Positions 2,998 to 26,695 are shown, counted from the stretch's first letter. The stretch is DNA of 64,000 bases from an uncultured Planctomycetota bacterium (GCA_903847315.1 CAINDG010000031.1:31435-95434); one strand, 5' to 3'. The notes: a model not told the origin generated them from the letters alone. Numbers and translations are program-made.

Positions 2998-3029
2998 AAA
3001 AAACTTTGTTTTTTAAAAGGAGTATAAAA

Positions 3030-5338: not shown

Positions 5339-5366
5339 AGTAAAAATAAATTAAAAGAGAAACTTT

Positions 5367-10335: not shown

Positions 10336-10350
10336 AAAAGTTGATAACAG

Positions 10351-10418
10351 CTCCCTCTCCCGTATTTTTTTCGCTTCAAGGTGCGAAAAAATCAGGATCG
10401 GGATTGAAAAATCGGGGG
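10351..10418 (+). repeat. Nested-hairpin intergenic element, copy D
   Basis: CTCCCTCTCCC ... TTTTTTCGC-ttcaaggt-GCGAAAAAA ... GGGA/GGGGG. Shares the CTCCCTCT 5' box, the TCAAGG loop and the AATCGGGG 3' box with the other copies. Confidence 0.8.
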
Positions 10419-10451
10419 CAAAAAATTTAAGAAATTTTTTGGAGATAAAAA

Positions 10452-11333
10452 ATGAACCTTTTTACATTAGGCGGCATAAAAATTGGGTCAACGGTAATCA
10501 AGGGAATCCAGGATTCCAATCTGAATAATGCCCTCGAAGAAATACTGCTGGCCGGAGATGGGAACCCGGATCCAACATTTGCGGCGATAGGGAAATTGAA
10601 CCCCGCAATTGATTTTACAACTATGGCCATAAAAATTGCGCTCGGGGCCTGCGGAATAAAAGGATGCACACTGGCCGCGGCGGAAATGAATTTGTGCAGA
10701 CTCGAAAATCTCGCCGTCAGAAAAAGCGGTTCGTTTCAATTCAAAGGAACGGTTGTCGGCGGATTTTTAGTTCCGGTCAGTCTGTCGGTTTCTAAATTTG
10801 GGGCCGCAACATTAAAATATCGCGGCGTATTGCTAAGCGCCGATGGCTCGGCCATGCCGATAGCACTTACGCCGACAGGCGCTGTGCTGAGCGGCGAGGG
10901 TGAAGTGACCGAGGCATATACGCTCGGACCGGTATCTATTAACGGGCAGACACTCGACAATGTCGAAGGATTCGATATTGATTTTGGAATCAAGACGGAA
11001 GAAACGTGGCCGAATGGTTTGATTCTGCCGACAGATAGTTCGATTATGACAAGAACACCCAAAATCACGATTAAAACGACGGATGTTGTCAATACGATTA
11101 CACTGGGAATCGCAGGAGCCGCGCAGTCCGCATCGGATTCGACATTGCAACTGATAGATATTACAAAGGGCGGGGCGAGAGGTTCTTCACCCATTACATT
11201 CTCCATCGATGATGGCAGGATTTCATTTAATAATATAGGGGCAAGCCACGGACAAAAGGCGATGACCGGAATAATCATAACACCGGTGTCGGATATGGTT
11301 AACGATATAATCGCGATTACGGGACTAACGTAG
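10452..11333 (+). CDS. Putative major tail (tube) protein
   Basis: 293 aa. First large gene of the tail block, three genes upstream of the tape measure. Call is by position only. Confidence 0.35.
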   Translation: MNLFTLGGIKIGSTVIKGIQDSNLNNALEEILLAGDGNPDPTFAAIGKLNPAIDFTTMAIKIALGACGIKGCTLAAAEMNLCRLENLAVRKSGSFQFKGTVVGGFLVPVSLSVSKFGAATLKYRGVLLSADGSAMPIALTPTGAVLSGEGEVTEAYTLGPVSINGQTLDNVEGFDIDFGIKTEETWPNGLILPTDSSIMTRTPKITIKTTDVVNTITLGIAGAAQSASDSTLQLIDITKGGARGSSPITFSIDDGRISFNNIGASHGQKAMTGIIITPVSDMVNDIIAITGLT

Positions 11334-11393
11334 TCATTAGTGAATAGTAAATAGTATTTAGTAAATGGTTAAGAGTTATTTTGTGAGATAAAA

Positions 11394-11576
11394 ATGACAA
11401 AAAAAACAGACACTGAGCAGCCGAAAGGCAGCGAGCCGACAGAGGCACAGCTTAAATACGATACGCTCAATAAACAATTCAGAGCGGAAAACGACCCTGT
11501 CAAACGGGCGGAACTTGACAAACAATGCCAGGAAGCGTTCGTTGAAAAACTGAAAAGCAGAGACGTAAAAATTTAA
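11394..11576 (+). CDS. Small charged hypothetical phage protein
   Basis: 60-aa ORF, Lys/Glu-rich and helical. Confidence 0.3.
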   Translation: MTKKTDTEQPKGSEPTEAQLKYDTLNKQFRAENDPVKRAELDKQCQEAFVEKLKSRDVKI

Positions 11577-11580
11577 TCAG

Positions 11581-11646
11581 CCCCTCTCAGTTTTGCTGCA
11601 AGGTCCCTGACGGGATTGGAATGCAAAACTGGTTGATAATACGGGG
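11581..11646 (+). repeat. Nested-hairpin intergenic element, copy E (carries an extra inserted mini-hairpin)
   Basis: CCCCTCT ... GTTTTGC-[tgcaagg TCCC-tgac-GGGA ttggaat]-GCAAAAC ... GATAATACGGGG. Confidence 0.75.
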
Positions 11647-11662
11647 CAATTTGGAGGCCAAA

Positions 11663-12493
11663 TTGCAATTTATTTATTTTATACCATCATCGAACGGTTT
11701 AGGGCAGGCGGGCCTGATTAAAAAAGCGGGACTCGACAATATTCTCGATGATCCGCAGAAGGTGACGAGCAACCAAATATTCAGCGGGCCGGATGGCCTG
11801 GCGGGATTCCTTTTTTCGTTCTGTCAGCCTAAAGAACTTAAATACAAACCTGCCCCGGCTGTTTCTTCCGAAGCGGAAAAAACAAACTGCCAGGGTTTCG
11901 ATAAATCTCAACAGGTCTGGCAAAAGAGTAATTGCGGAAAATATTATATCGGATTTTATTCCGACTCGCCGCCGACTGAAAAAGAACTTGCGCGAGATGT
12001 ACAGATTACAGGACACCCCGTTAAATTGGGACACGGACAAACACAGACTGAAACACAGACAGACACGGATAAATGGATAATTCCACTTGCTCGTATTTTC
12101 CCGGCAGGGACGAAACTGCCGCAATCATTGATACTCGGCTCAAACGGCGAGGTCGTAACCGAGACGCTGCCGAAATTCGTCAGGTTTTCCGCGATGTGCG
12201 AAAAACTCTGGCGTGAATTCGAAATACAAATCGGACTTGCGGCAGGTGAAAAATCAATGACCACGGCGGAAGGGTTCACGCTGGCAACCGAGGCGTTAGC
12301 TATCAACTACCGGATTAATGTAGACGGTATAAATATCCTGAAATTATTCAATACGCAAAATATCGCGCAGATACTACTGGCGGTAATAGACGCACAAACG
12401 GTGCAGGCGAAAATGACAGAACTGGTTGGTTCGTCTCAGGACGAAAAAAAAAAGTTAGAACCGCCTCCGGCGACGGAGCGTTCGGAATCCTGA
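11663..12493 (+). CDS. Hypothetical phage tail-region protein (possible assembly chaperone)
   Basis: Track ORF starts at ATG 11621, inside repeat copy E. In-frame TTG 11663 has GGAGG (11653-11657) 5 nt upstream. Contains a TQTETQTDTD low-complexity linker. Confidence 0.35.
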   Translation: MQFIYFIPSSNGLGQAGLIKKAGLDNILDDPQKVTSNQIFSGPDGLAGFLFSFCQPKELKYKPAPAVSSEAEKTNCQGFDKSQQVWQKSNCGKYYIGFYSDSPPTEKELARDVQITGHPVKLGHGQTQTETQTDTDKWIIPLARIFPAGTKLPQSLILGSNGEVVTETLPKFVRFSAMCEKLWREFEIQIGLAAGEKSMTTAEGFTLATEALAINYRINVDGINILKLFNTQNIAQILLAVIDAQTVQAKMTELVGSSQDEKKKLEPPPATERSES

Positions 12494-12560
12494 GGGCAAT
12501 AAAAATGAACGATTATTTTCCGACTTATGGCGAAATTTTTTTGTTTGAAAAAGGTTTATA

Positions 12561-13046
12561 GTGATATATCAGCAATGCAAAATGACAGTTGAGAAACCGC
12601 CCAATATAGTGCGAGAAAAATTTCCGGAGATAATGCAGGCGGCTTTTCAATTTTTTATGCTTCAATGGCACAACGACACGTTACCCAAGCATTTCACTCG
12701 GGAAGCTCCGGAAAAATGGCATTACGATAAACGCACAAAAATATATCAAAATAGAAAAAATAGAAAAAGCCTGCCGCCACTGGTATGGACTGGCGACTCG
12801 AGACGAAGATTGCTTGCGAGTGTTAGAATTGAATTAAGAGGTAAACACCCGGTAAGAGCGACAGGCAAATTTGATGCGCCGCAATATTTCTGGATGAGAA
12901 AGGAAAACGACCCGGACAAAGGCGGCGAATTTATGAGGATTAATCCGGATGAATGGAATGGAATTGCCGAGAGAATAAATAATTATATTTGGCAAAAAAT
13001 CGACGAAACTGAAATGACGGAATACTACGGTTTTGATTATCATTAA
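12561..13046 (+). CDS. Hypothetical phage protein
   Basis: 161-aa ORF with a GTG start, immediately upstream of the tape measure gene. Confidence 0.35.
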   Translation: MIYQQCKMTVEKPPNIVREKFPEIMQAAFQFFMLQWHNDTLPKHFTREAPEKWHYDKRTKIYQNRKNRKSLPPLVWTGDSRRRLLASVRIELRGKHPVRATGKFDAPQYFWMRKENDPDKGGEFMRINPDEWNGIAERINNYIWQKIDETEMTEYYGFDYH

Positions 13047-13061
13047 TGATAAAAAATAAAA

Positions 13062-14747
13062 GTGCCTGAATCTATAAATAAAACTGTTTGGGAAGGTGAC
13101 GCCGGTAAACTCTTATCGGCAATGTCGAAAATTGTCGAAAAATATAAAGAGGTTAACGGGGAAGTTAAAAATTTTGGCAAACACGGCCAAGAGTCCGGCG
13201 ATATGGTCGATGATGCCTTGGGTAAGGCGGCCAACAGCGCAAAGAATTTTATAATGGGTTTCGCCACGGTAGGAGGCGTCATAGCATCCATAAAGAGTTT
13301 AGTGGATCAAATGAAAGAAATAATTTCACTACGAAATGAGATGTTCCAAACAGCACTGTCCGTCGAGCAAATAGGACTTAAAATAGCAAACCTGCGGGGT
13401 GATGTATCAAAAGCGGGGATGGATAAAGTTGTAAAAGATTTGGAAAATATATCACTGGCGGGCAGAGTATCTCCCAAAATAGTGGGGGGTATAATGGAGT
13501 CGGCGGAAGCAACTTTAGGGCCCGGAACACCGGCGGCGATGGCAGCGTCGATAAATATGGCAAAATTATACGGTCCGGCAGGATTAACTAATGAGGGGGA
13601 CATATTACCGAAGATTTTCAAAACGGCAAATGCCGATACGAGTGAGAAACAATTAAAAATATTAAATGAAATAATCGCCGCCCAAGGCGGCTCGACTGTA
13701 AAACTGGGCGACTTTTTGCAAAATTATGGTTCAGTATTAATAACTGATTTGCGCAAACAATTTACGCTCGAACAATCGCTTGCCAAATACTCAGCGGCAA
13801 TGACTACCTCAGCCACAGCAGGTGAGGCGGCAACAATGGATGAAGAAGTTACCCGTTTATTATCGACTCCGAGTCTAAAAGGTTTTAAGTATTTGAAAAG
13901 TAAAGCCCATCAACAAGGAATGGATTTTATACAAATGGAGTCGCCGGAAAGACTTGCTTTTGCACAACAACTTTATGGACAGTTTCAAACAAAAGAGGAA
14001 AAAGAAAAATTCAGACTGGCAGTAGCACCTCGCGGCGGTTGGAATAGTGTGGAAGGAATGTTCAGCGAAACAGGGCAAGCAGCGGCAGCAGATACCAAAT
14101 CGAGATTGAATAAGGTCATAGATAATTATGTCGAAAATAGAATAAAAAATTTTGAAGAAGTTTTGACAGCAAAAAGTATTGAGTCTGATATAGCAAAAAT
14201 GTTCGATGAAACCAAGGTAACGGGGAAAGTATCGGCGACAGTACTCTTGGAAGCTGCAGTTAAAAATAAATGGAGAACTGAACACGCAGGTGCGGCCTCA
14301 AATGAAGAATTTATAAAAATGTGGGCAAACGTTAAGGAAATTGAACAATTCAGGGAACAGCGGAGCATTCTACGACAGAATCTGGGAATAGCTTACGAAA
14401 AGGCACCGGCAGGTCGAAAAGAATATATTCAAGACTTATATACACGGGCGATGGGAATGGGTTCGGCGACTTTAAATCCCCAACTCATACAGGAAATTTC
14501 AGATGTTACGGGAAATTTTCAACTCCAGAGACAAACAGGCAGGACTATCAATCCTAATTTGTTTCAGAAAGCTGTTATTAATCCGCAGAATTATGAATAT
14601 GGCGCAATTAGTATGGAGGATAGAAAATTATCGGCGGTCGCGGCGGATGATTTAAAGGAAAATACAAAAGCATTGAATAGACTATCAAGAGCAATTGAGG
14701 ATAGTAATTTGTCAAGCATCGGGCCGAATATAGAAATACCGGAGTAA
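13062..14747 (+). CDS. Tail tape measure protein (short, 561 aa)
   Basis: Long, largely helical sequence with a Gly-rich hydrophobic patch (GFATVGGVIASI). Located between the tail-region genes and the distal tail genes. Confidence 0.55.
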   Translation: MPESINKTVWEGDAGKLLSAMSKIVEKYKEVNGEVKNFGKHGQESGDMVDDALGKAANSAKNFIMGFATVGGVIASIKSLVDQMKEIISLRNEMFQTALSVEQIGLKIANLRGDVSKAGMDKVVKDLENISLAGRVSPKIVGGIMESAEATLGPGTPAAMAASINMAKLYGPAGLTNEGDILPKIFKTANADTSEKQLKILNEIIAAQGGSTVKLGDFLQNYGSVLITDLRKQFTLEQSLAKYSAAMTTSATAGEAATMDEEVTRLLSTPSLKGFKYLKSKAHQQGMDFIQMESPERLAFAQQLYGQFQTKEEKEKFRLAVAPRGGWNSVEGMFSETGQAAAADTKSRLNKVIDNYVENRIKNFEEVLTAKSIESDIAKMFDETKVTGKVSATVLLEAAVKNKWRTEHAGAASNEEFIKMWANVKEIEQFREQRSILRQNLGIAYEKAPAGRKEYIQDLYTRAMGMGSATLNPQLIQEISDVTGNFQLQRQTGRTINPNLFQKAVINPQNYEYGAISMEDRKLSAVAADDLKENTKALNRLSRAIEDSNLSSIGPNIEIPE

Positions 14748-14750
14748 AAA

Positions 14751-15155
14751 ATGGGAAAAATAGGCAATTTTAATTTTATTAATATAACGGGTGGCAGGCT
14801 CGCCGGAAACCAGCCCGTTGTTAATCTGATTGACAGGCAGGGGGTTGACGGAAAAGGGTTTCGAATCGAGGCGAGCAAATCCAAAGAAATCACGGTGCAG
14901 ACAAAAGAAAAATGCACGAGTATCGAAATTGCAAATGACAGGGACGAAAATTACGCCCAGTTAATCGGAACAGCGGTCGATGTTACCGATGATATGGGCA
15001 AGATGACAAATAACGTGCTTATATTAGATGTTGGAGTCAATTCTGTGCGTCAAGTCGTTGGAAGCAGCGATATTCACTGCAAGGCGATCGTCGAGGCGGT
15101 TTGGCGATTAATAGTTATGAACCCGGAAGATTTGTTCGGAGGAACATTACCGTAG
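14751..15155 (+). CDS. Minor/distal tail protein (hypothetical)
   Basis: 134 aa. Starts 3 nt after the tape measure stop. Call is by position only. Confidence 0.35.
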   Translation: MGKIGNFNFINITGGRLAGNQPVVNLIDRQGVDGKGFRIEASKSKEITVQTKEKCTSIEIANDRDENYAQLIGTAVDVTDDMGKMTNNVLILDVGVNSVRQVVGSSDIHCKAIVEAVWRLIVMNPEDLFGGTLP

Positions 15156-15180
15156 TCGGATAGTTAAAAGTGAACAATGA

Positions 15181-15232
15181 CCCCCTCTGAGTTTTGCCCT
15201 CAAGGCGGCAAAACTCGCTGATAAATCGGGGG
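15181..15232 (+). repeat. Nested-hairpin intergenic element, copy A
   Basis: CCCCCTCT ga GTTTTGCC-ctcaaggc-GGCAAAAC tcgctGATAAATCGGGGG. Confidence 0.85.
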
Positions 15233-15250
15233 TGAAAAAATTGAATACAG

Positions 15251-15301
15251 CTCCCTCTTAATTTTGCCCTCAAGGTGGCAAAATTAATAAAAACCCGGGA
15301 G
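15251..15301 (+). repeat. Nested-hairpin intergenic element, copy B (in tandem with A)
   Basis: CTCCCTCT ta ATTTTGCC-ctcaaggt-GGCAAAAT taataaaaacCCGGGAG. Confidence 0.85.
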
Positions 15302-15336
15302 TTAAATTTTAAAATTAAAATTTAAGGACTCGAAAT

Positions 15337-16353
15337 ATGGCAATTACAATAAAAAGATATACAGGACTGGCGCCGTTAGTCGCGCAGGTAGATACTTTCA
15401 CACCCGGCGGCACAATCGAGATCGGCGATATATTCATTCTGACGGTTACCGGCCTTGACGGCTCAAAGGCATATATTACCTTTGCCGCAACCGCCGCAAC
15501 CGCGGCAAATGTAGTTGCCGGCCTTACCGCATTATGGAACGCATCGAGCAATCCTCTATGCACTCCGGTAACAGCCAGTGGAACGGACACTTTAATACTA
15601 ACCGCCGATACACCGGGGACTGCGTTCAGCGTCGTTGGAACCACGACAGAGGCGAATGGCGATGCAGCCGATGACCAAACGTTCACGAGGGCGGCTACGG
15701 TTGTCAACAGCGGGCCCAAGGACATATCGCTGGCCGCAAACTGGCAGGATAATGTACTGCCTGGGGCAGTCGCAGACCAGATAGTATTTGTCGAAGATGC
15801 GACTATCCTTTACGGACTGGCATCGCTGGCCTCAATCGCCAACGCTATTACGTTTAATGTTCAGCGAAGCCAGATAAGCTCTAACCCTGCGCCCGGAACT
15901 CCTGTAATATTCCTGCAGGTCAAGGCGACAACAGTCAATATCGGTAAATACGATGGGCCGGGGACTGCGAGCGAAAAGGCGCCAATTAATATAGATACGG
16001 GCAGCCAGGTATCTACCACGACTGTCTATAACGCTGGGTCAAACTCCAACTCGACAATGCCGGCGGTCAGAATAAAATGCAACTCGGCATCTGCCGTTAT
16101 CAATGTTCACAAGGGCAAAGTCGGAATCGGATTCGAGCCGGGAGAAGTGACAGTCGCCGGAACCGTCAATGTATCGTATGCGACAAATATCGCGGGCGAT
16201 GCAGATGTATTTATCGGGTATGGTGTGATACTGACCACCCTGAATATCGACGGCGGCGATACGAATATTCAGAATACGCCGACCACGACAAACCATAATG
16301 CAGGGACTCTGACGAAAAACGGAATCAAATATACGGCGACGAAGGCGGCATAG
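15337..16353 (+). CDS. Hypothetical tail protein
   Basis: 338 aa, Thr/Ala/Gly-rich and beta-type in composition. Lies between the tape measure and the giant tail proteins. Confidence 0.35.
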   Translation: MAITIKRYTGLAPLVAQVDTFTPGGTIEIGDIFILTVTGLDGSKAYITFAATAATAANVVAGLTALWNASSNPLCTPVTASGTDTLILTADTPGTAFSVVGTTTEANGDAADDQTFTRAATVVNSGPKDISLAANWQDNVLPGAVADQIVFVEDATILYGLASLASIANAITFNVQRSQISSNPAPGTPVIFLQVKATTVNIGKYDGPGTASEKAPINIDTGSQVSTTTVYNAGSNSNSTMPAVRIKCNSASAVINVHKGKVGIGFEPGEVTVAGTVNVSYATNIAGDADVFIGYGVILTTLNIDGGDTNIQNTPTTTNHNAGTLTKNGIKYTATKAA

Positions 16354-16375
16354 TTAAAAAATTTTTAAATTTTTA

Positions 16376-19300
16376 ATGCAAATAAAACGATTACATATAC
16401 AGGTTTATTCGAGAATCAAATGGACGGATAACTGGCAGATCGAGCCGCATATCGAGCCGTTAACCGCCGATGTCGTAATGGCACCATCTATCGGAACGGC
16501 CATACTTCGGCTGCGATACGGCAAGGGACAATGGGAAGATTGGACAAGCCTGCTCAGCGGCGCCGAGATGCGAGAGATGAGCCGGATATATATTCAAATC
16601 AGGGTATCATATAATGCCGATATGAGCGAGGCGGGGATTTATTTTACCGGATTCATACCGGCGGAACAATTCGACATACTCGGCGACAATCCTATCGAAA
16701 CAGTAGATTTGGAGGTTATGGCTTACGACCTCGCAAAACTGCTCGAGGTGCCCCTGACTGGGGCGTGGGTTGACCCTGTGGGAGATGATGATACAGCGGC
16801 GGTGTGGATCGATTCACTGCCGAAATTCAATAAAAGATATAAACATGAGTGGGAGGTTGAAGGCAATCGCTCAACGAGCAAATATGTTTCACCCGTAACT
16901 GGCGCCGAAAGTTATGTTTTCAGCGAGGACGGCGAGGTCTGGACAAATGCCGATATTGTCGAATACCTGTTGGCTTATTATCAGCCGAAAGATGGTCCGG
17001 TATTTTCAATGAACTGGCTCAAAGAAAACGACAAGGACATTCTGGAGGCTTTGGGCCAGATAAAAAATATCTACGACCCCAATAATTTACTGCTGATCGA
17101 AATGATAAATACGCTCATTTCCCGCAGCCGCGGACTTACCTGGACTACCACGGCACTTTTGAATGATAATGTCGAAATCGCAATTTTCAGCCTACTCGAT
17201 GCAGACCTGACTATTAATGAGATCAAACTGCCTAAAAATTCGCACCCTCTGAAGGCAAACCTCTGGAAATTACAGATGGACTCGAAAGTAACGGTCGTCA
17301 AAGACAGCCGTAACGTCGCCGATAAGATTACCGTCCGCGGCGCGAAAATGAAGACCTGTTTTACGGCGGAGTTCAGCGATAACACATTAGAAAAGGCATG
17401 GACGGATGCGCTCGAGACGGCGTATAAAAACGCGGCAAAGGATATTACAGGTTACGATGAACTTGACGACGACCGGCAGGCGACGGCAAATGACAGATAC
17501 AGGGGAGCGGACAGATTTCACAGGGTATTTTCGAGTTTCAGACTGCCAAGGACTTTTAACTGGAAAAAAGGTTTGCATAACCTGATCCCCCTGCTGGATC
17601 CGGCGACGGGCGAATTGGATATAAATAAAAACGCAGCGTACTGGAATATCGGCAAACGCATATTGCATACTTTGCCGTTTAAAAAAGGTATAGATTTTTC
17701 GGATGTGGAAGAAGATGATGAAAATCCGCTTGGCAGCGAACCGGAATATAAACCGATACTTGCAATAGTCAAAGGACCTGATGATAAGTATTTTCTGGCC
17801 GAAAAATTCTGTACGGAAATAATGTCGCTGTCGGCGGCGATCAGGCCGATGAGAGCGGAGACGGGAGTGGAGGTAAAATTTTCACCGGCATACCTTGCCG
17901 CAAAAAATCACTGGCCGGTTTCAGCCGAACCCGGGCTGCACGATATTACAGATGAGGATTCGGTTCTGTCCTGCGATTATGAAGATACACTGGTTACGGT
18001 TTTTGTAGAGACCGACCAGTATGTTAAACTGGAATATTCACCGGCAGCGGATACGGCGAAAGATATTACAAATCATAAAATAATCGATATACCGGCTGCC
18101 CAGCTTTGGTACGTAGTACCGGGTACAATAATCGATATAGCGGCGGATGGTACGCTGCTGGCTTACGGGGCCGACAATCCGGCGGTGATAAAAGACGACA
18201 GAGATTTATTAAAAGGAATCCTGGTCGCGGCGGCGGTATGGTACTGCAAACCTAAATATAAAGTTAATATCACCAGCGACAGTCTCGATGCAATGGCGGC
18301 GTTGGGCGATATGCTTATAGACATTGACCCCGAAAAGAAAAACGACCAGTTAGGCTCGGTAATTACACATCTGAGTTTTGATTTTTCGAATCAAAAAACA
18401 ATTATCGATACCGATTTTGGCGAACTGAATTTTGCTGCGATAGCGACCGGCAGGAGAAGGGCGCCTTCGGCGACGAAGACAGGAACCGGTTCAGCAGCGG
18501 AAAAGATAAAACATCTTACCGGAGAAATTGAGGAGATTAAAGAGCAGCTTGGCTCGACGCCGCAAAGATTTGATATTCCGACCGGCAACGGCGGGGGCCA
18601 ACAGATTTATGCAAAGATTATCGAAACACTCTCCGAGCCTGATTACACAGCAGACCCGGAAACAGAATCGCAAAAATACGCCGGCATCGCGGCGTACAAA
18701 TGCAGATTGATAACAGACAAGACCGCCGTATGGGTAATCGATACCCCTTATATAATCGGCAGCAAATGCCTCGGCAGTAATAATTTAAAATATATTTCAA
18801 AGACTGGTGACCTTGAGAATCCAAACACCGGTCACGACCCGGTAGCAGATACCGAGCATACAAACTGGGAAATCGATGAAGAAATCAGGGTTGATTTTGC
18901 TCTCGGCTTTGAAAATATGTGTAAAATATGGAACGGTGATGACACATATCACATAAACGATATTAGAAAATATGCCGTTGACGGCCAACTTTGGAAATCG
19001 AAAAATACCAATTCCAATGTCCCGCCGCCGAGCAGCGAGACGGCGTGGGAGAAAACGTCTCTTCCGTTTTTGATTTGGAACGGTGACGATACTTTTTACG
19101 AAACTAATATCGTTTACAATCCGGGCAATAAATTATTTTACGTTGCCCTGACTACGAGCAGTAATGTCGAGCCGCCGACCAGCTCGACGGCGTGGAAACT
19201 TACGCCGCGACTGGGTGACCTGCGGAATTTCAGCCCGCAAATTGCCGTCGGCGAAGAGGTAATATTAGTCAAGAAAAAATTCGGGGATGAATACAGATAT

Positions 19301-19408
19301 TATATTCAAACGCCGTCTTTGCGATACACAGGCAAACCCGAAGAGGCGTCAATCCGCAATGTTCTTTCGGATGATGGCGGCTATATTGAACAGAGCGTAG
19401 CTATATGA
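16376..19408 (+). CDS. Large tail/baseplate protein with C-terminal CBM5/12-like repeats
   Basis: 1010 aa. Two ~44-aa repeats (IWNGDDT.....I.Y......L......T.SNV.PP.S.TAW) at about 18925-19056 and 19072-19203. Also carries the SKTGDLENPNTGHDPVADTEHTNW motif shared with the next gene. Confidence 0.5.
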   Translation: MQIKRLHIQVYSRIKWTDNWQIEPHIEPLTADVVMAPSIGTAILRLRYGKGQWEDWTSLLSGAEMREMSRIYIQIRVSYNADMSEAGIYFTGFIPAEQFDILGDNPIETVDLEVMAYDLAKLLEVPLTGAWVDPVGDDDTAAVWIDSLPKFNKRYKHEWEVEGNRSTSKYVSPVTGAESYVFSEDGEVWTNADIVEYLLAYYQPKDGPVFSMNWLKENDKDILEALGQIKNIYDPNNLLLIEMINTLISRSRGLTWTTTALLNDNVEIAIFSLLDADLTINEIKLPKNSHPLKANLWKLQMDSKVTVVKDSRNVADKITVRGAKMKTCFTAEFSDNTLEKAWTDALETAYKNAAKDITGYDELDDDRQATANDRYRGADRFHRVFSSFRLPRTFNWKKGLHNLIPLLDPATGELDINKNAAYWNIGKRILHTLPFKKGIDFSDVEEDDENPLGSEPEYKPILAIVKGPDDKYFLAEKFCTEIMSLSAAIRPMRAETGVEVKFSPAYLAAKNHWPVSAEPGLHDITDEDSVLSCDYEDTLVTVFVETDQYVKLEYSPAADTAKDITNHKIIDIPAAQLWYVVPGTIIDIAADGTLLAYGADNPAVIKDDRDLLKGILVAAAVWYCKPKYKVNITSDSLDAMAALGDMLIDIDPEKKNDQLGSVITHLSFDFSNQKTIIDTDFGELNFAAIATGRRRAPSATKTGTGSAAEKIKHLTGEIEEIKEQLGSTPQRFDIPTGNGGGQQIYAKIIETLSEPDYTADPETESQKYAGIAAYKCRLITDKTAVWVIDTPYIIGSKCLGSNNLKYISKTGDLENPNTGHDPVADTEHTNWEIDEEIRVDFALGFENMCKIWNGDDTYHINDIRKYAVDGQLWKSKNTNSNVPPPSSETAWEKTSLPFLIWNGDDTFYETNIVYNPGNKLFYVALTTSSNVEPPTSSTAWKLTPRLGDLRNFSPQIAVGEEVILVKKKFGDEYRYYIQTPSLRYTGKPEEASIRNVLSDDGGYIEQSVAI

Positions 19409-22400
19409 TCATTGCGACAAATCCCCTGAAATGGCGAAAAGCGAACTGGACTGACTTGCGGGCTTATGTAGCCGAATGTGCAGCAGTAACGCTGCATCCC
19501 GAAAATTACCCTGCCAGATATTGGCCTAAAAAAGTTTCGACAAAGGATGCGCTCGAAGACTTGCGAAGATTGGTCTGGCTCAAAGAGCATCCGCAAGCAG
19601 GCCAGATTGACGATTCGATTTTAGAATTTGCCCTGCCGGAACTTGACCCCGGAGAGCCGATTTATAAATATCGAGGCGAGTGGATTGTAACTACTTACGA
19701 TATTTTTTTGAAAAGATGGTTTTGGTGGGTAAACAAAGAAGATAAGACCCGCACTCAGGCAAATATTATGCCTGAGCCGCCATCGTTCGCGAAAATCTGG
19801 CTTGAAACCACAACATATCGTAAAGGGGCTTATGTGATTGACCCTTATGATATGTTCAGTTACCAATCACTCGAAGATAATAACGCAGGTAATTCTCCGC
19901 ACGGAAGTTTGAACAAATGGGTCAAAAAATCAAATTCCATCCATCCAAACGACCTCCCAAACTGGGAAGAAAAACCTTATAACGTAACTGAGGCGTGGTC
20001 ATATAATACGCCTTATGTAATTAATAATGAATCACTTGCGAGCGATGGATATATTTATAGGTCGAAAGTTGGCACGGAAGAAAATCCGAATCTTGACCAC
20101 GACCCGGTTGCAGATACAACCCACACTTACTGGGATTGTGTCGGTACGGAAGAAAACATTGTTTTTTATCCCGACAAGGTAACGATTGACGGCAGGTTAG
20201 GAGAGGCCGAACCTTACGACCCTAAAAAAAGATATTGTATGGGTGATTCGGCACGCGGCAGCGATGGCTTTAAATATGTCTCAAAGGTTGGAACTATCGC
20301 ATCTCCCAATATCGGCAATGACCCCGTGGGCGATACGGTTCACTGGGAAATTCCGTCAATTACCGATGGCGTCGCTTACAAGGCGAAGATTCCAATAACA
20401 GGTGATGATATTCATATCCCGCCGCCGCAAAATAAAACCGGCTGGGAAAAATGGGCAAACTGGTATATCGAAGACGCAAACTGGTACGGAATTCCGAATC
20501 CTAATTTTTACCACGACTTCGATACCAACTCACCGTATTTATTTATCAAACAAGAATTAAACGGCGGCCTTGAGAATCTGATTGACTGTCCACCCCAATG
20601 GTTTTATCCGCCGCAGGATGATGCCCGCAGAATATTTGACCCTGTTCGTTTCGCTGATACAGGTCTAACGCTGTTTCAATATAAAAGCAAGGTCAAAAGT
20701 CCCGAAATTACCGACCCTCAAACACTTGGGCCGGTGTTTGATATATGGGACAGGTTCGCAATTCAGGATGCATATTCAGACCCGCCAGTTCCATACATAG
20801 TTTCCAAACCACCGGGAAAACTTTTATATCGAGGAGCGTATTTAGGCGGGCAATATTCAAATTACGATTCACTTAATCGCAATAGTCCCGGCCTTGATGC
20901 GGGTATGCAGCGAACCGAACCTTACGAATGGAGTTACAATCCCAAGGTAAAAAAATATTCGCCGATGCAAAATAAAATTGAATGTATTTTGTCAGACAAT
21001 TGCTGGCGAATTTTAGCGGATGAAGTTTATAAAGCAAACTGGCGAATCTGGAAAGGACTTGCTGTCGGCGCGGAGGTAACTGAAGAAACAGACTGGCTGG
21101 ATTATGTTTTACTGGTTGACCCGCGACACGGAGATAATGAAAGCGGTTTTGAATGTGCCATGCGGCGATATGGTAAATACGATTGGTATTTTGATTCCGT
21201 TTATCCTTACGTCCCATTTTACGATGCAGCTTCGCCGGCAAAATCTTTCGTCTGCTATCTCAAAAGTCTGTCGGGAGATTTAGAGACTCATAAAACAGAA
21301 TATAATATGCGATTTGCCGGAACATTCAGAAGAACCTGGAAGCACGGGATGGGTCGTAAATCACCATTTATGCGGTCGCTCGAAATGGGTGAGCCAACTC
21401 ATTTGAGAGACACATTCACAAAAGTATCTCCTCTCGACCAAAAAGAATACACGTGGTTCGGAGCACGGACGAATGATTTTCCACCTATCAGCGAGTTTGA
21501 CCCGGAAAATAGTTTTGCGGATATTACGGCAAAACAAACTATCAACAACTGGGTTAATAACACCGAGTATGACAAAGGTACAAAAATCTGCTTTAACATT
21601 ATCAGTGCCGATAATTTTAATTTGAATACCGGATATGTTATCGGCGATGTAGTTAAGGCGTCGAATAATAAATATTATATTTCAAAAGTTGGCACGCAGC
21701 AGAATCCAAACCTCGGTCAGGAACCGGCGACATATCAGGGCTGGGAATGGGTTAAAAATCTTTGCTATCGCGCAAAGGTAGCGATAGAGGGGGCATCCGC
21801 ACTTCTGCCGCCGCCGCTCAATACAGATTGGGAAGTCGTCAGCGACTATAAAATCGAAATTGACGGCGATAAGACAAATATTTTAAAGCCCGGCTGGGTG
21901 ATTCATCTCTGTCAAGAGACCTCTGATTTGATTTCTAATGGTGAATTCTTCTTAAACTGGGCGTACATTATGTCGCTCAAATATAATTCGGAAACATCTC
22001 GAACGGAAATCATTCTGCATTTTCCGGAAGAGACAACGGTCAATTCGAGGGTTCTTGCCTGCACAAAAATCGGCTGGAACGCAAATATCTCAAAGAGGCA
22101 CGATGGAATCGGAATTACAAGAGACAGCAACGGAACTGTTACGCCGTTATATCAACTTACTGCAGAGATGCTTGTCGAGATGTATGATGTTTTGGAATAT
22201 GCAAAATATGTAGATTATATTATGCCCGAACTGGATGTCAATCTTGGCACGTGGCCGAATGACAGGGGGCAAGGCGAAGATGGGGAGTTTTATAAAGCCG
22301 ATTCAGTCGGCGATTATGTTGGCCGTCTCACGAGTAAGATGAGCAGCGAATTCGGCTATGAAATTGAAATTGAAAAAGGTTGGTTTTCCGACGCCGTGGA

Positions 22401-23835
22401 TGTCGGTTCTTTTATTCAGGCAGGCGGTTATACTCCATACGAGTATAACCGCGAGGCTCCCCTCGCAAGGCATAAAATGTTTTCGGGTATGGGTTGGTTT
22501 TCGGCGATGGTCATATCCGGCACGTGGGTGGGATTAAAGAATCCGCCGAAATATATTATCGTACAATTTTTATTACACTCTATAATTGATTACAGCGGCA
22601 ATGGGATGCTCTGCACACCGTGTTCGGCGGGCGGCATATCGGCACCACCATTAATTCAACAGGGTCAACAGGTCAAATATTATCGAAGGCATTTAAGACT
22701 CAATGCAAACGGAGACAAACATTTTTTGATTCCGCCAATGATTCCTCCATACGATGTGTATATAACATCGGTTGAGCAGAATGATTACGATGAAAATGGC
22801 GATTTGTATTTTCCGTACCGACCGAGAACGTGGCTGACCTCTTATCTTGGAGGTTCGACATTACTGGGAATCCAAGCCGTATTGCCGGACTCATTCATTG
22901 AGATAGAAAACATTACTACTCCCGATAGCGTTTTTGAGAATGGATTATTAGTTCATCATATCGACGCCGCGTTAACGCTCGATGAAGATATTAAGCCGCC
23001 GCTGCCGAACCCGCCAATTTTTGAAGAAAAGTCGCAAGTATATTATAAAGTAATTTTGCCTTATGGACCCGGCAAGACTCCTGAGAATCCCGAATTTTGG
23101 AGCGTGTACGGTTTGTATCCGGCAGGCAGTTATGTTTTAGATTCAACACAAAGAATAGTTTTTAATGGCGAGGCATTTTATATTTTATACCACGCTATCA
23201 ATGATGATTATGCGAATAAAGGAATATATGACCCAATGTATTGGGAAAAAATTCCATTCTCATTTGAAAAAAGAATCCGTGCAGAGATCGGTAAATGTGT
23301 GGATGATGAATCGCTCAGCAATCCAGTCCGCTATCGACTTATCGGCGAAGGCGATGCACCGACGGGGGCTTGGACGGAAAATCAGGAAGTCGAAATAACG
23401 ATAGAGGCATTGGCGATCGAAGATGTTATCGGCACAATTATTTTGGATGACACCGTGGTCTCATACCCAGGCGGGACGGTAGTACGGATTCCACTTAATG
23501 CAACGGGGCTTATCGCGGGAATGACGGTCGTATTTATAAACGGTTGGCCTGTGCCGAACAATGTTGTGATAGCGGCGGTTGACCCGAATTTTCAGTGGAT
23601 TGAAATAGACTGGGGATGGAGCGACCCGTACGAGCCGATTCGTTTTCCAAATAATTCAAGAATGCTGTTTGGAAAAATACGAGAGGATAATTGGTCGAGC
23701 GACCCGGCAGCGAATTATAAATTTGCCTGCCAGGCGAAAGATAATGCCACGCCGCAGAATGTCGGACTGCCGAGCGAATTTGCGCAGGTGGCCGCGCCTG
23801 ACGAATGGCCGATGGATATTTGGATTAATCTGTAG
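19405..23835 (+). CDS. Giant tail fibre / receptor-binding protein with repeated aromatic carbohydrate-binding-like modules
   Basis: 1476 aa. ATGA overlap with the upstream gene. Three copies of SKVG....NPN.G.[DE]P...W modules plus several W...Y..G..V...P..W segments. It is the last gene of the late operon. Confidence 0.5.
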   Translation: MIIATNPLKWRKANWTDLRAYVAECAAVTLHPENYPARYWPKKVSTKDALEDLRRLVWLKEHPQAGQIDDSILEFALPELDPGEPIYKYRGEWIVTTYDIFLKRWFWWVNKEDKTRTQANIMPEPPSFAKIWLETTTYRKGAYVIDPYDMFSYQSLEDNNAGNSPHGSLNKWVKKSNSIHPNDLPNWEEKPYNVTEAWSYNTPYVINNESLASDGYIYRSKVGTEENPNLDHDPVADTTHTYWDCVGTEENIVFYPDKVTIDGRLGEAEPYDPKKRYCMGDSARGSDGFKYVSKVGTIASPNIGNDPVGDTVHWEIPSITDGVAYKAKIPITGDDIHIPPPQNKTGWEKWANWYIEDANWYGIPNPNFYHDFDTNSPYLFIKQELNGGLENLIDCPPQWFYPPQDDARRIFDPVRFADTGLTLFQYKSKVKSPEITDPQTLGPVFDIWDRFAIQDAYSDPPVPYIVSKPPGKLLYRGAYLGGQYSNYDSLNRNSPGLDAGMQRTEPYEWSYNPKVKKYSPMQNKIECILSDNCWRILADEVYKANWRIWKGLAVGAEVTEETDWLDYVLLVDPRHGDNESGFECAMRRYGKYDWYFDSVYPYVPFYDAASPAKSFVCYLKSLSGDLETHKTEYNMRFAGTFRRTWKHGMGRKSPFMRSLEMGEPTHLRDTFTKVSPLDQKEYTWFGARTNDFPPISEFDPENSFADITAKQTINNWVNNTEYDKGTKICFNIISADNFNLNTGYVIGDVVKASNNKYYISKVGTQQNPNLGQEPATYQGWEWVKNLCYRAKVAIEGASALLPPPLNTDWEVVSDYKIEIDGDKTNILKPGWVIHLCQETSDLISNGEFFLNWAYIMSLKYNSETSRTEIILHFPEETTVNSRVLACTKIGWNANISKRHDGIGITRDSNGTVTPLYQLTAEMLVEMYDVLEYAKYVDYIMPELDVNLGTWPNDRGQGEDGEFYKADSVGDYVGRLTSKMSSEFGYEIEIEKGWFSDAVDVGSFIQAGGYTPYEYNREAPLARHKMFSGMGWFSAMVISGTWVGLKNPPKYIIVQFLLHSIIDYSGNGMLCTPCSAGGISAPPLIQQGQQVKYYRRHLRLNANGDKHFLIPPMIPPYDVYITSVEQNDYDENGDLYFPYRPRTWLTSYLGGSTLLGIQAVLPDSFIEIENITTPDSVFENGLLVHHIDAALTLDEDIKPPLPNPPIFEEKSQVYYKVILPYGPGKTPENPEFWSVYGLYPAGSYVLDSTQRIVFNGEAFYILYHAINDDYANKGIYDPMYWEKIPFSFEKRIRAEIGKCVDDESLSNPVRYRLIGEGDAPTGAWTENQEVEITIEALAIEDVIGTIILDDTVVSYPGGTVVRIPLNATGLIAGMTVVFINGWPVPNNVVIAAVDPNFQWIEIDWGWSDPYEPIRFPNNSRMLFGKIREDNWSSDPAANYKFACQAKDNATPQNVGLPSEFAQVAAPDEWPMDIWINL

Positions 23836-24109
23836 TCTTAAATTTATTGAGACAGTCGGGACATAAATTTTGGCCGGAATCGAGCGGCTTCATCGCATCT
23901 TTCGGAAAAGATAAACCGCAAATATCACACTTAACCTTTGCCCCTGCGGTAATCACAATTGACTGTTGAATAACGGTTAGAAGTTTATAGATGTTTTGAA
24001 GCGAATCGGCGATGTCGTTTATGCGGAAAATATAACGCGCAAGAGATATTATTAATGCAAAAAAAACAGCGATGCCACCGACAATAATTATGATAAAAAA
24101 ATATGCCAT
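23825..24109 (-). CDS. Membrane-anchored zinc-ribbon protein (accessory/moron gene)
   Basis: 94 aa. N-terminal TM (FFIIIIVGGIAVFFALIISL). C-terminal CDIC...CPDC. Its 3' end overlaps the convergent tail-fibre gene by 11 nt. Confidence 0.45.
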   Translation of the reverse strand: MAYFFIIIIVGGIAVFFALIISLARYIFRINDIADSLQNIYKLLTVIQQSIVITAGAKVKCDICGLSFPKDAMKPLDSGQNLCPDCLNKFKTTD

Positions 24110-24192
24110 CGCCTGATCTGTTTGGGGTTATATTCCAGCAGAAAATACATATTTCTCCTTTCGAGTTATCTTGAACAGGCGAACAGAGAATA

Positions 24193-24834
24193 TTAGGGGT
24201 ATATAGAATCAATACTGAATTTGCAATATGATACTCTTGTGAAAATCCGATAAAATTCTACTTTAAAAGGTTTCATCTGCCCCTTTTCTATTCGGCCAAT
24301 TTGAAAAGAATCAACATTGAGCAATTGATCTTTGTTATCATAAAGACTTACAGAAAAGGAGGCATTTTGATATGTTCGGGTATAATTATTTGTCACTTCA
24401 CCGACAACAGTTACAGTCATGTCGTCAATTCTGCTTATTTGAACATTTTTAAAGCTGAATTTTCCGGGAATATTATCAGTACTATTATTGGAAATGAATT
24501 TTTGTAGATTTTCATTTTTTTCAGTTAATGCATCATTTTCTTCAGCACCTTCTTTTGATATATCTTTCCAGCGTTCAACATCTTTTTTAAGAGAAAGGAT
24601 ATAGTCGGTCGATTCATTAAGCTTAATAGTTGATTTGTTAAGATTGTCAGCGGCCTTATTTAGTAATTGGTTACTTGCCTGTATTTTTTCATCGGCGGCT
24701 TTTTGAATAATTTCAATTTGCTGTTTAACTTTTTCTCTGTCTGTTCGGGTAAGCAAAGTGCCTGCCACAAATCCAGCAACTCCGGCGATTCCAGCGGATA
24801 TAATCACAGCAAGAATCAGGTGTTCTTTTTTCAC
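24193..24834 (-). CDS. Membrane-anchored coiled-coil protein with a C-terminal beta domain (FxLYD-like)
   Basis: 213 aa. N-terminal TM (LILAVIISAGIAGVAGFVAG), then a coiled coil. C-terminus ...VTVVGEVTNNYTRTYQNASFSVSLYDNKDQLL... resembles FxLYD-type domains. Confidence 0.45.
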   Translation of the reverse strand: MKKEHLILAVIISAGIAGVAGFVAGTLLTRTDREKVKQQIEIIQKAADEKIQASNQLLNKAADNLNKSTIKLNESTDYILSLKKDVERWKDISKEGAEENDALTEKNENLQKFISNNSTDNIPGKFSFKNVQISRIDDMTVTVVGEVTNNYTRTYQNASFSVSLYDNKDQLLNVDSFQIGRIEKGQMKPFKVEFYRIFTRVSYCKFSIDSIYP

Positions 24835-24842
24835 GTATTCCT

Positions 24843-25196
24843 CTAAGCTTTTTTGTGATATCGTTTAGGGCCAAACATTTCGACGAAAATCTTTTTTAAT
24901 TGGTCGTATTCATTTGGCAGCACAGTAATTTTTTCAACGCCAGATTCAGACATTAAACGCACTACTGTATTAATTGCTTGTTCTACATTTTCGGTTTGCG
25001 GAGGCGTTTCCTCAACAGATTTATTTGCTTCCTCTACCATTTTTTCACGCTCATCGGACTTCATTTTACTTAAAGCAATGACTCCGGCCGAGAGGAGAAT
25101 GTTGGTTCCTCCAAATTTATTGATTATTTGCTCTGCAACAATCTGCGCATGCGGAGTAAGAAGCTTTTTTATGGTTGATAGTTTTTTCTCGGCCAT
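24843..25196 (-). CDS. Hypothetical protein (first gene of the antisense cluster)
   Basis: Track ORF starts at TTG 25214; ATG 25196 (MAEKKLSTIKK...) is more likely. No recognisable motif. Confidence 0.35.
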   Translation of the reverse strand: MAEKKLSTIKKLLTPHAQIVAEQIINKFGGTNILLSAGVIALSKMKSDEREKMVEEANKSVEETPPQTENVEQAINTVVRLMSESGVEKITVLPNEYDQLKKIFVEMFGPKRYHKKA

Positions 25197-25318
25197 AAAT
25201 CGAATAGTATACAAATTTTAAATCAGTTGTAAATATTTATCATTATTATGGTTACAGGCCGCATAAATCTGATTTTATAAGAAATATCAGAAAAATACGA
25301 AAAAATCTGTTTTTTCAT

Positions 25319-25347
25319 TTGACAAAATATCCCAGCACTCGTAATAT
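25319..25347 (+). promoter_or_regulatory. Near-consensus sigma70-type promoter: TTGACA - 17 nt - TAATAT
   Basis: TTGACA at 25319-25324 and TAATAT at 25342-25347, with the spacer counted as 17 nt. Lies in a 290-bp AT-rich gap, divergent from the antisense cluster. Confidence 0.5.
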
Positions 25348-25505
25348 CGCCGGTGCAATAAGGATTAAGCAAAAAATGGCAAAGAAGAAAAATTAAGAAA
25401 GTCGCCGGAACTCAGCTTTGGCATCCAAACCTCTTATTTTCAATCTTGCCTATTTTAACATTTAAGAATTAAAAGTCAAGTAAAAAGTTCCGCCATAGTT
25501 CGGCT

Positions 25506-25997
25506 ATGGCGAGATCTCGCCCGCCCATCGGGGCAAGGCGGACAAGAAAAATCCGGCCAGCCACGAAGGCACAAAGACACGAAGTTTTTGGGTATTTTAT
25601 GGATGTGATAGCAAAGACGAAAGGGCACCTCGATGAGATAGTTGAAGCAACATCTCACGGGGCAAGACAGGGGATGGGAATAGAGGGATTGCCGGTCTGT
25701 CCGGCGGGGCATCTGGTTCTATGCAAGCCAGTGGTCAAGACCTTCCTGAAATGGCAGTTTCAGCGGTACGAGACGTTCTGCCATCACTGCGACCGCCGGT
25801 ACATCATTTATCGCTGGCGGTGGCTGGGTGATAAGGAATGGACAATCTGGCGATACAAAGCCTTTCCCCCGAATGAGATAGCCGAAGCGACATCTCACGG
25901 GGCAAGCCGGGATGATACGTTTCACATCGCTTACCGTCCACCAGTCGAGGTATTAAATAATATTCTTTTTATGCAGGAAATCGCCACGATGGGATAG
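25506..25997 (+). CDS. Hypothetical Arg-rich zinc-ribbon protein flanked by a repeated EI.EATSHGA motif (coding status uncertain)
   Basis: 163-aa ORF with CPAGHLVLC...CHHC. The region is GC-rich and stop-free on both strands, so it could instead be structured RNA. Confidence 0.3.
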   Translation: MARSRPPIGARRTRKIRPATKAQRHEVFGYFMDVIAKTKGHLDEIVEATSHGARQGMGIEGLPVCPAGHLVLCKPVVKTFLKWQFQRYETFCHHCDRRYIIYRWRWLGDKEWTIWRYKAFPPNEIAEATSHGASRDDTFHIAYRPPVEVLNNILFMQEIATMG

Positions 25998-26032
25998 CCG
26001 CGGGCAGCCCACATGGTAAAGGAGTTTTTAAA

Positions 26033-26479
26033 ATGAGAGCGATAAAATTCAGGGCTTGGGATAAACGCTTAAGCAAAATGCTTGATGCTTTAGGTTTATA
26101 TTTCAGGAGAGACGGTTCGTTAATGGACGTAGGGCTTAGGGACGATAGCGGCACAGTTGTTGATGTCAAAGGTGTAGAGATTATGCAATTTACCGGCTTG
26201 CTCGATAAAAACGGCAAAGAGATTTATGAGGGGGATATAGTAAGAATATTTCATAGAAAATGGTATTTAAATGCCCCGACAGAATGGAAAGTATTTAAAC
26301 TTAAATCCGGCAAAGAACAGTTGGGAGCCGTTTATTTTGACGAGAATGACTATAGATATCGCGCGAAGTGTTTAGAGAATTTTAGTCCGGTATTTGATAA
26401 TTGCGGAGAACACGGAACGAGACATTTTGAAGTAATTGGCAATATTTATGAAAATCCAGAATTGTTAAAATCAACGTAA
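26033..26479 (+). CDS. YopX family phage protein
   Basis: MRAIKFRAWDK...MQFTGLLDKNGKEIYEGDIV...FEVIGNIYENPELL is the classic YopX pattern. AAGGAG lies upstream of the ATG. Confidence 0.85.
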   Translation: MRAIKFRAWDKRLSKMLDALGLYFRRDGSLMDVGLRDDSGTVVDVKGVEIMQFTGLLDKNGKEIYEGDIVRIFHRKWYLNAPTEWKVFKLKSGKEQLGAVYFDENDYRYRAKCLENFSPVFDNCGEHGTRHFEVIGNIYENPELLKST

Positions 26480-26489
26480 TCAGCAAATA

Positions 26490-26541
26490 CTCCCTCTCGA
26501 TTTTGCTTTCAAGGCTGCAAAATCTGGTGATAAATCGGGAG
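26490..26541 (+). repeat. Nested-hairpin intergenic element, copy C
   Basis: CTCCCTCT cg ATTTTGC-tttcaaggct-GCAAAAT ctggtGATAAATCGGGAG, immediately after yopX. Confidence 0.85.
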
Positions 26542-26695
26542 TTCAAAACAAGGTTTTGAAGCTATTTTACAAGTTAATATGAGAGGGATATGGTTCCGAA
26601 GGATTGAATTTACAGCTTGACTTTTAAGGACAAAAGCGGTAAGCTATCGGCATTATGCTGTAGCTTGCGGCTTTTACGGAAGGGAGGATAGTGGT

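Follow-up and report, generated by a model that had tools for sequence, protein, structure and literature searches.

Short repeated intergenic motifs, with or without stem-loops, lie just upstream of gene starts at module junctions in two phage groups, as the promoter early stem-loop (PeSL) cassettes of T4-type phages and as the start-associated sequences and their extended forms (SAS/ESAS) of cluster K mycobacteriophages. Both have been proposed to be regulatory as well as mobile or recombinogenic. In tagged repetitive extragenic palindromes (REPs), an unpaired GTAG or CGTC tetranucleotide stands at one end of a 20-40 bp palindrome (PMC3733652). Here, a family of structured intergenic repeats is described from a 64,000-nucleotide stretch of DNA of an uncultured Planctomycetota bacterium (GCA_903847315.1, CAINDG010000031.1:31435-95434), referred to as the window, in which positions 1-27.7 kb form the right part of a siphovirus-type prophage with all structural genes on the + strand. 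The family, not catalogued before, comprises five complete copies and a reduced sixth copy of a double-hairpin element of ~90 nt. It belongs to no known RNA and represents low-copy, hairpin-forming intergenic insertion repeats of Phycisphaerae (Planctomycetota) and of this prophage. The six prophage copies, all within 24 kb, are uniformly sense and occupy spacers of the co-directional late (head and tail) operon.

The original prediction placed five copies at 10351-10418, 11581-11646, 15181-15232, 15251-15301 and 26490-26541, and all are present there, on the + strand and in intergenic positions. The letters given to them did not follow coordinate order (copy B was 15251-15301 and copy E was 11581-11646), and start coordinates serve as names here. 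A regular expression of the form CCCTC..CAAGG..(C/A)GGG(A/G) returns the five copies together with one unrelated 85-nt match at 44156-44240, which lies in a gene and carries no stems, and it has no match on the - strand of the window. The covariance-model scan proposed alongside the prediction used a model, R1, built from three copies only (15179-15234, 15249-15304 and 26488-26544) and run over the full 64 kb with filters off. This model recovers both left-out copies far above chance, at 11578-11648 (38.0 bits, E 6e-9) and at 10356-10406 (25.3 bits, E 4e-5), while the next-best match in the 64 kb reaches 14.3 bits (E 0.08). This weak match, at 30730-30788, was rejected as an unrelated hairpin.

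Each unit is built from an outer stem (P1), an inner stem (P2) and a second, adjoining hairpin (P3). P1 has the consensus CYCCC/GGGRG over 5 bp, extendable to 6-7 bp, and opens into an asymmetric internal loop with UCU on its 5' side and N(0-3)UGAUAAAUC on its 3' side, the latter having diverged in the 15251 copy. P2 measures 8-11 bp, is centred on UUUU/AAAA and is capped by a conserved 8-nt loop, YUCAAGGN, which is enlarged to 10 nt in the 26490 copy. From the shared boxes and (C/T)TCAAGG loop that defined the family at the outset, the 11581 copy deviates in both boxes (GCCCCTCT) and in the loop (TGCAAGG). An A-rich, unpaired and semi-conserved 5' flank of ~16 nt (about AAAAAGTTGAWAACAG) lies upstream of P1. 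The unit boundaries first drawn proved too short, as a perfect AT-rich hairpin, P3, adjoins every copy but 15181 at a distance of 0-1 nt; it has 8-11 bp and a 3-4 nt loop, and its sequence is wholly different between phage copies. Because five of the 11 perfect hairpins of at least 8 bp in the 64 kb begin 0-1 nt past a P1, and because the copies from a metagenome-assembled genome (MAG) described below also carry P3, this hairpin is assigned to the unit. Every copy adopts the nested hairpin on folding (z-scores of -2.8 to -3.8 relative to shuffled sequences). P2 and P3 are fully paired in all phage copies bearing them despite their differing sequences, and the unpaired nucleotides are better conserved than the stems. 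Additionally, most copies contain two TGAWAA-type motifs, one lying a few bases upstream of P1 and the other in the 3' internal loop (10341-10347/10404-10410, 15170-15176/15218-15224 and equivalents); these pairs may represent direct-repeat recognition sites, but the motif is common in window sequence at 1.7 per kb.

The mini-hairpin CTCCC-TGAC-GGGAG, which had also been reported outside the full copies, is present at 2980-2993 and constitutes a sixth, minimal copy, in which P1 closes directly on TGAC and P3 follows at 2994-3018; it scores 13.7 bits with R1 (E 0.12).

Covariation of the stems, the central argument of the original prediction, is borne out in both helices. It was assessed in a nine-row alignment of the five window copies and four metagenome copies, in which 98.3% of cells are paired, against 82.2 +/- 2.0% in shuffled alignments, figures to be read with the alignment having been fitted to the model and structure and with four of its rows being near-identical. 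Compensatory change on both sides is seen in 8 of 14 pairs, against 3.7 +/- 1.3 in shuffles (none of 500 as high), and slid-register controls show 33-60% pairing with at most two such pairs. Specifically, P1 position 4 alternates between C-G and U-A and position 5 between C-G and G-C, while P2 shows the series G-C / A-U / C-G and C-G / U-A / G-C; the inner stem of the metagenome copies, UUUUAU/AUAAAA, differs from the window form UUUUGC/GCAAAA by two compensatory changes. As the stems covary, selection acts on a single-stranded structure. Wobbles are G-T on the + strand only, at p4 in the 10351 copy and at p6 in the 15251 and MAG copies, which is weak evidence for the + strand because the - strand folds about equally well. 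Near-identical phage contigs (99.9-100%) carry identical elements and are for that reason uninformative on covariation.

The six copies vary this plan in characteristic ways. The minimal copy (2980..3018, +) consists of P1 only, followed by P3 of the form TTTTAAAAAAC-TTT-GTTTTTTAAAA, with the Shine-Dalgarno (SD) sequence GGAG at 3019 and the ATG of a decoration-like gene (3030-4193, +) at 3030. The 10351 copy (10336..10441, +) has the A-rich flank AAAAGTTGATAACAG, the loop TTCAAGGT and a doubled outer stem, with GCTCCC/GGGGGC enclosing TCCCG/CGGGA: outer P1 lies at 10350-10355/10414-10419, the extra inner stem at 10358-10362/10399-10403, P2 at 10366-10374/10383-10391 and P3 at 10419-10441, with an SD GGAG at 10441 and the ATG of a probable tail tube gene at 10452 (+). 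In the 11581 copy (11563..11666, +), P1 is formed by 11580-11584/11643-11647 and P2 by 11588-11596/11623-11631, and the TGCAAGG loop is extended by an inserted mini-hairpin, TCCC-TGAC-GGGA (11604-11615); its P3 (11646-11666) holds the SD GGAGG within its loop and a TTG start (11663) within its 3' arm. Two copies follow each other as a direct tandem. The 15181 copy (15165..15232, +) has the 5' flank AAAAGTGAACAATGAC, P1 at 15181-15185/15228-15232, P2 at 15189-15198/15207-15216, the loop CTCAAGGC and the 3' internal loop GCTGATAAATC; it has no P3, and the flank of the next copy follows directly. That next copy, 15251 (15235..15325, +), comprises the flank AAAAAATTGAATACAG, P1 at 15251-15255/15297-15301, P2 at 15258-15268/15277-15287, the loop CTCAAGGT and P3 at 15302-15325, with an SD AAGGA at 15324 and an ATG at 15337 downstream. 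The 26490 copy (26480..26560, +) is formed by P1 at 26490-26494/26537-26541, P2 at 26499-26506/26517-26524 and P3 at 26542-26560, with the loop TTTCAAGGCT and the 3' internal loop TGGTGATAAATC; it sits between a YopX-like gene (26033-26479) and the tyrosine integrase gene (26696-27616), with no gene start directly after it.

The position of the units relative to gene starts is precise. In the minimal, 10351 and 15251 copies, the end of P3 is 10-11 nt from the ATG and the SD sequence begins at the foot of P3. The TTG start of the 11581 copy aligns with the ATG of its homologue in a related contig, L090 (contigs compared here carry L numbers). Genes directly downstream include those for the decoration-like protein and the probable tail tube, which are abundant virion proteins.

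A 2.6-kb contig, L090, carries six consecutive homologues of the window genes between 9266 and 13046, in the same order and at 37-60% identity, and thereby allows the junctions to be compared directly. The junction before the tube gene measures 21 nt in L090 against 116 nt holding the 10351 copy in the window, and the junction between the 55-aa and 245-aa genes, an overlap (TAATG) in L090, is expanded to 86 nt holding the 11581 copy in the window; an R1 scan of L090 gives no match. With these junctions empty in the relative, the elements are insertions into compact, partly translationally coupled junctions rather than part of an ancestral phage regulatory plan. R1 also found no element in L001, L002 and L052-L056, contigs that say little because they have in common with the prophage only a 338-aa gene, or that gene and the integrase.

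Beyond the prophage the family is rare. The window has no match in Rfam 15 at gathering thresholds, and a permissive Rfam scan of 15100-15340 yields at best <=18.6 bits against thresholds of at least 43. No relative was found by BLAST of a 6.5-kb region against GenBank phage records, or by BLAST of the MAG block against phages and plasmids. Four patterns searched in IMG/VR gave chance matches only, none of them folding, and the 5' half of the element gave 44 chance matches among 185,579 GTDB species representatives, none with the 3' half. A scan of JGI metagenomes returned 17 matches, four of them real. These come from a single sample, Ga0209417, where they lie on contigs of 24-239 kb; they score 40-50 bits with R1 and belong to Planctomycetes bacterium GWF2_41_51 (GCA_001825665.1), of the same lineage as the window's host. 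These MAG copies are near-identical over ~120-130 nt, including a P3 of the form GATTTTTAC-ACA-GTAAAAATC, and their flanks are unrelated. The copy on L063 adjoins an IS481-type transposase gene, that on L072 lies ~370 nt from a gene for a Y1 transposase resembling REP-associated tyrosine transposases (RAYTs), that on L066 is placed between a LanC-like gene and cheW, and that on L076 is between a 651-aa gene and topA, antisense to both, in an island missing from L083, a relative with a 90% identical TopA. Uncompensated defects occur in these recently spread chromosomal copies, as a P2 deletion (L063) and a decayed P3 (L066).

The phage specificity suggested by the original prediction thus fails, as the four chromosomal copies stand in non-phage contexts and in either orientation to their neighbours. 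The family is equally far from a generic high-copy host REP, the reading that had been named as its possible undoing: no copies occur in ~100 kb of unselected chromosome, namely the 36 kb of flanking host DNA (window 27.7-64 kb) and ~65 kb of related Phycisphaerae chromosome (L083, L085 and L086). It is therefore low-copy in chromosomes and strongly concentrated in this prophage.

The MAG loci contain further repeats. A second nested-hairpin family, GAGATTGC-(variable inner hairpin)-ACTCCGCGCAATGAC, forms clusters beside the element at L076 3188-3233, 3572-3623 and 3782-3827 and at L063 1171-1214; its AAGATTG heptads resemble the element's 5' flank, and the window has no member of this second family. 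A long nested perfect hairpin, CCCCGTCATC..TTTGCC-GATA-GGCAAA..GATGACGGGG, occupies L080 13086-13134 (= L076 3294-3342), ~110 nt from a MAG copy; it has a TTTGCC/GGCAAA inner stem as in the window copies but neither the conserved loop nor the boxes (15 bits, E 0.04).

The reading favoured here, tentatively and with somewhat less than an even chance, is that the units work within the late mRNA as a module for processing, stability or translation start. They would be transcribed as part of that long message and function in it at the RNA level. Their single-stranded A-rich flank would be the likely site of endonuclease entry or cleavage, and the stable double hairpin would cap either the downstream cistron at its 5' end or the upstream cistron at its 3' end, giving segment-specific mRNA stability. 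The end of P3 at 10-11 nt before the start would place the SD sequence just beyond a defined helix or, in the 11581 copy, within the loop of that helix; from this placement, it is proposed that translation of the downstream gene starts de novo rather than by coupling. A module is preferred to inert DNA because an A-rich unpaired flank is combined with a very stable double hairpin, because P3 is placed precisely relative to the SD sequence, and because P2 and P3 are maintained perfectly despite turnover of their sequences. Several points weigh against this functional interpretation. We infer the cleavage, the stabilisation and the translational effects alike from sequence. No gene start comes after the 26490 copy, and P3 is missing from the 15181 copy. 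Folding z-scores are equally good on the - strand, and G-T wobbles form in single-stranded DNA too. The covariation could mean selection among element lineages for transposition competence, not for a phage function. Finally, L090 manages without the elements, which are therefore dispensable for such a phage, and the L076 copy, being antisense to its neighbours, indicates that the family persists without a sense mRNA context.

The main and strong rival, a real possibility although on the unlikely side, is that the family is purely selfish DNA, a non-autonomous mobile repeat of the REP, miniature inverted-repeat transposable element (MITE) or PATE type, whose hairpins are read as single-stranded DNA by a transposase or HUH-type enzyme, with phage copies tolerated and stems kept for the mobilising enzyme. 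Such mobility would account for the sites empty in syntenic L090, for the four near-identical ~120-130 nt blocks with unrelated flanks in variable regions near IS481 and RAYT-like transposase genes, for the island with one copy that is missing from a relative with 90% identical topA, and for the copy antisense to its neighbours; even the uniform orientation in the phage could come from strand-specific insertion relative to replication. However, by the criteria of PMC3733652 the element has no terminal inverted repeats, no target-site duplication and no GTAG/CGTC tag. The sole nearby Y1 transposase gene has its own, unrelated 26-nt inverted repeats, and no such transposase gene exists in the window. 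Copy number is low, with none in the ~100 kb of unselected chromosome. Moreover, P3 differs in every phage copy and yet remains perfect and fixed relative to the start codon, which is not what simple copy-and-paste would lead one to expect.

An extended proposal, which we consider unlikely, joins insertion to an RNA function. The units would form a new class of cis-acting two-hairpin RNA of Planctomycete phages, and occasionally of their hosts, that punctuates long operons; a conserved host factor would read them as a processing or antitermination signal through the UCAAGG loop and the UGAUAAAUC bulge, and they would spread by intercistronic insertion, bringing their own translation-start context.

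The unpaired positions also invite an operator interpretation, which is distinctly doubtful: a phage or host protein, acting as an RNA- or single-strand-binding regulator, would read the UCAAGG loop and the UGAUAA of the internal loop and 5' flank, and would repress or time late-gene translation near P3 and the SD sequence. The stronger conservation of unpaired nucleotides than of stems, the TGAWAA motif 5' of P1 and in the 3' internal loop of most copies, and the placement of units directly upstream of translation starts agree with such a site. Against it, no candidate RNA-binding protein was identified and no protein is common to the phage and MAG loci, neither the MAG copies nor the 26490 copy adjoin gene starts, and TGAWAA is frequent in window sequence.

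As originally held, the units are not standard terminators: they have no U-tract, whereas the same prophage carries canonical hairpin-plus-T terminators, namely a bidirectional terminator-like hairpin with A- and T-tracts at ~4270-4330 and a hairpin with a T-run at ~5365-5415, 3' of the head gene. The combination of a GC-rich hairpin and a direct U-tract that marks intrinsic (Rho-independent) terminators is missing from the units, five of six having no U-tract and only the P3 of the 11581 copy preceding a T-rich run, which was found by the terminator scan. Large GC-rich hairpins at 4194-4384 and 5339-5593, among them these two terminators, stand on either side of the major head gene, so that the most abundant head gene is enclosed by strong structures of a different kind from the repeat family. 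In a put-like scheme of processive antitermination or attenuation, two adjacent hairpins in nascent RNA would make RNA polymerase read through late-operon terminators. The two canonical terminators do lie in the late region downstream of the minimal copy, and two stem-loops 0-1 nt apart recall the gross architecture of HK022 put RNA as generally known. This scheme is nevertheless very unlikely, as the element resembles no antitermination RNA by sequence or in Rfam, six copies are strung along the operon rather than a single copy just past a promoter, syntenic L090 has no elements, chromosomal copies stand in unrelated contexts, and the minimal and 15181 copies lack half of the structure. Least probable of all are unusual factor-independent or factor-dependent terminators or pause sites dividing transcription units, a role compatible with stable, GC-rich, intergenic hairpins and with the T-rich run of the 11581 copy but opposed by the five U-tract-free units, by the canonical terminators of the same phage, by shared loop and bulge sequences not expected of terminators, and by the block that termination ahead of the tube and distal tail genes would impose on essential gene expression.

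Other identities were considered and set aside. The TTGA-type flank and TGATAA box give no consistent -10 at 16-18 nt across copies, and a promoter/terminator scan with manual flank checks found no consistent promoter adjoining the copies. A small open reading frame is not conserved, an ATG being present in the MAG copies and the 15181 copy only and the peptides differing. Loop-flank or loop-bulge pseudoknots reach at most 3 bp and are not conserved. GGA is not conserved in the loop as in a CsrA site, U54 is not conserved as in a tRNA-like T-loop, and the GA positions of a K-turn are inconsistent. By the R''/L''...L'/R' criterion for integron attC sites, no copy has GTTRRRY or RYYYAAC cores.

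The surrounding genes frame these assignments. The structural region includes a lambda-family portal gene (120-1595, +) and the major head protein gene (4385-5338, +). The gene that follows the 10351 copy, coding for 293 aa, probably specifies the tail tube, with PF18906 matches in 6 of 52 homologues (best E 8e-5); a single-sequence AlphaFold model of its product reached a predicted local distance difference test (pLDDT) score of 31 with no usable fold, a profile search of the PDB gave no match, and no relatives of the gene were found in IMG/VR. The 338-aa tail-region protein (15337-16353), encoded directly downstream of the tandem 15181/15251 copies, is the sole gene product common to several otherwise unrelated siphovirus contigs (37-60% identity), a distribution that points to putative mosaic exchange of that single gene. 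Right after the integrase gene, GGTCGTGAGTCCGAGTCTCACTGGCTCCA at ~27640-27680 resembles the T-arm and acceptor 3' end of a tRNA gene. This tRNA-like fragment probably marks the attR core and right prophage end; no whole tRNA gene was found in the 64-kb window. Just beyond the prophage end, a Nudix-family protein (27734-28141) has a PADLOC match to the candidate defence family PDC-S07 (E 1e-24). The window's host is a Planctomycete of Phycisphaerae type. Its HtrA shows 78% identity with a protein from a 'Phycisphaerae bacterium' and 69% with the HtrA of Planctomycetes bacterium GWF2_41_51.

Almost nothing is known of gene regulation and mobile DNA in Phycisphaerae and their phages, and this case offers covarying helices, conserved unpaired bases, empty sites in a syntenic relative and a fixed position relative to the ribosome-binding site. 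If the RNA reading is true, the units would show how a temperate phage sets relative virion-protein output from one long transcript, and would constitute an expression module that can be moved between cistrons. Should they instead be selfish DNA, they would be a new type of small structured repeat that colonises phage genomes without the usual REP or MITE hallmarks. In both cases the element qualifies as a candidate new entry among RNA or repeat families; its general importance is limited for now because the known distribution, one phage lineage and one MAG, is very narrow.

Comparison with described systems begins with the dispersed bacterial repeats. Like REPs and bacterial interspersed mosaic elements (BIMEs), the GTAG/CGTC-tagged REPs, Correia, ERIC and BOX, the element is short, intergenic, hairpin-forming and dispersed with unrelated flanks in one lineage; like the REP/BIME type it is probably transcribed in mRNAs, where such repeats are known to alter stability, and a RAYT-like gene stands at one locus neighbouring it. 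It differs in being untagged, low-copy against tens to hundreds per genome, and not arranged as inverted dimers, and in being larger, bipartite (a nested hairpin and a second one), equipped with a conserved loop and bulge, and concentrated in a prophage. Specifically, the bases 5' of P1 in window copies are CAG, GAC, ATA or TTA, and only the MAG copies show GACG, which complements CGTC; two copies adjoin in a single case (15181/15251), where they form a direct tandem. The RAYT-like Y1 transposase gene of L072 (360-1210; 229 aa; NF047646 at 69 bits against a cut-off of 80) is flanked not by the element but by its own 26-nt inverted repeat, GGAAATCCGGGGACACCATACTAATT, and no RAYT-like homologue was found in the window. 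Two copies of this repeat precede the gene and a third follows it in inverted orientation, which is the 'TIR-associated' layout of PMC3733652. As regards MITEs, the ends of the MAG block (..TTTACCCGCTCC / GCGGCTCTGA..) do not form inverted repeats, and the flanks show no duplication. IS200/IS605-derived palindrome-associated elements have a subterminal hairpin at each end for recognition by a Y1 transposase and insert 3' of a fixed tetra- or pentanucleotide. In comparison with these, three of four MAG copies start just past TTAC and P3 is ~12 nt away from the right-hand end; however, the hairpins differ from each other, the window copies are without the terminal segments, and no cognate transposase was found.

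Among phage RNAs, the element shares with the T7 RNase III sites (R0.3, R1.1 and others) an irregular hairpin plan with upper and lower stems and an asymmetric internal loop, as well as sense placement at intercistronic junctions of long phage transcripts without U-tracts, the T7 hairpins being left to protect mRNA segments. Sites of the T7 type call for about two turns of nearly unbroken double-stranded RNA, cut in or close to the internal loop; in the element, P1 and P2 together provide 15-18 bp, broken by the internal loop of 3/9-12 nt. The differences are the absence of any sequence relation, a lower stem of only 5-7 bp, the extra abutting hairpin, the occurrence of the element also in a bacterial chromosome and its absence from a syntenic relative; cleavage is in our case only predicted. 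PeSLs carry an early promoter, whereas the element's flanks show none that is consistent; the SAS motif is linear, measures 13 nt and overlaps the ribosome-binding site, whereas the conserved part of the element is a covarying double hairpin. HK022 put RNA resembles it in having two adjacent stem-loops over ~70-90 nt of a phage transcript, with function residing in structure and a few unpaired bases, and differs in showing no sequence or model similarity and in being placed downstream of a promoter, where the element has six copies within an operon and further copies in a chromosome. For the proposed RNA role of the element, the nearest functional analogues are the T7 RNase III sites and the REP-type mRNA stabilisers.

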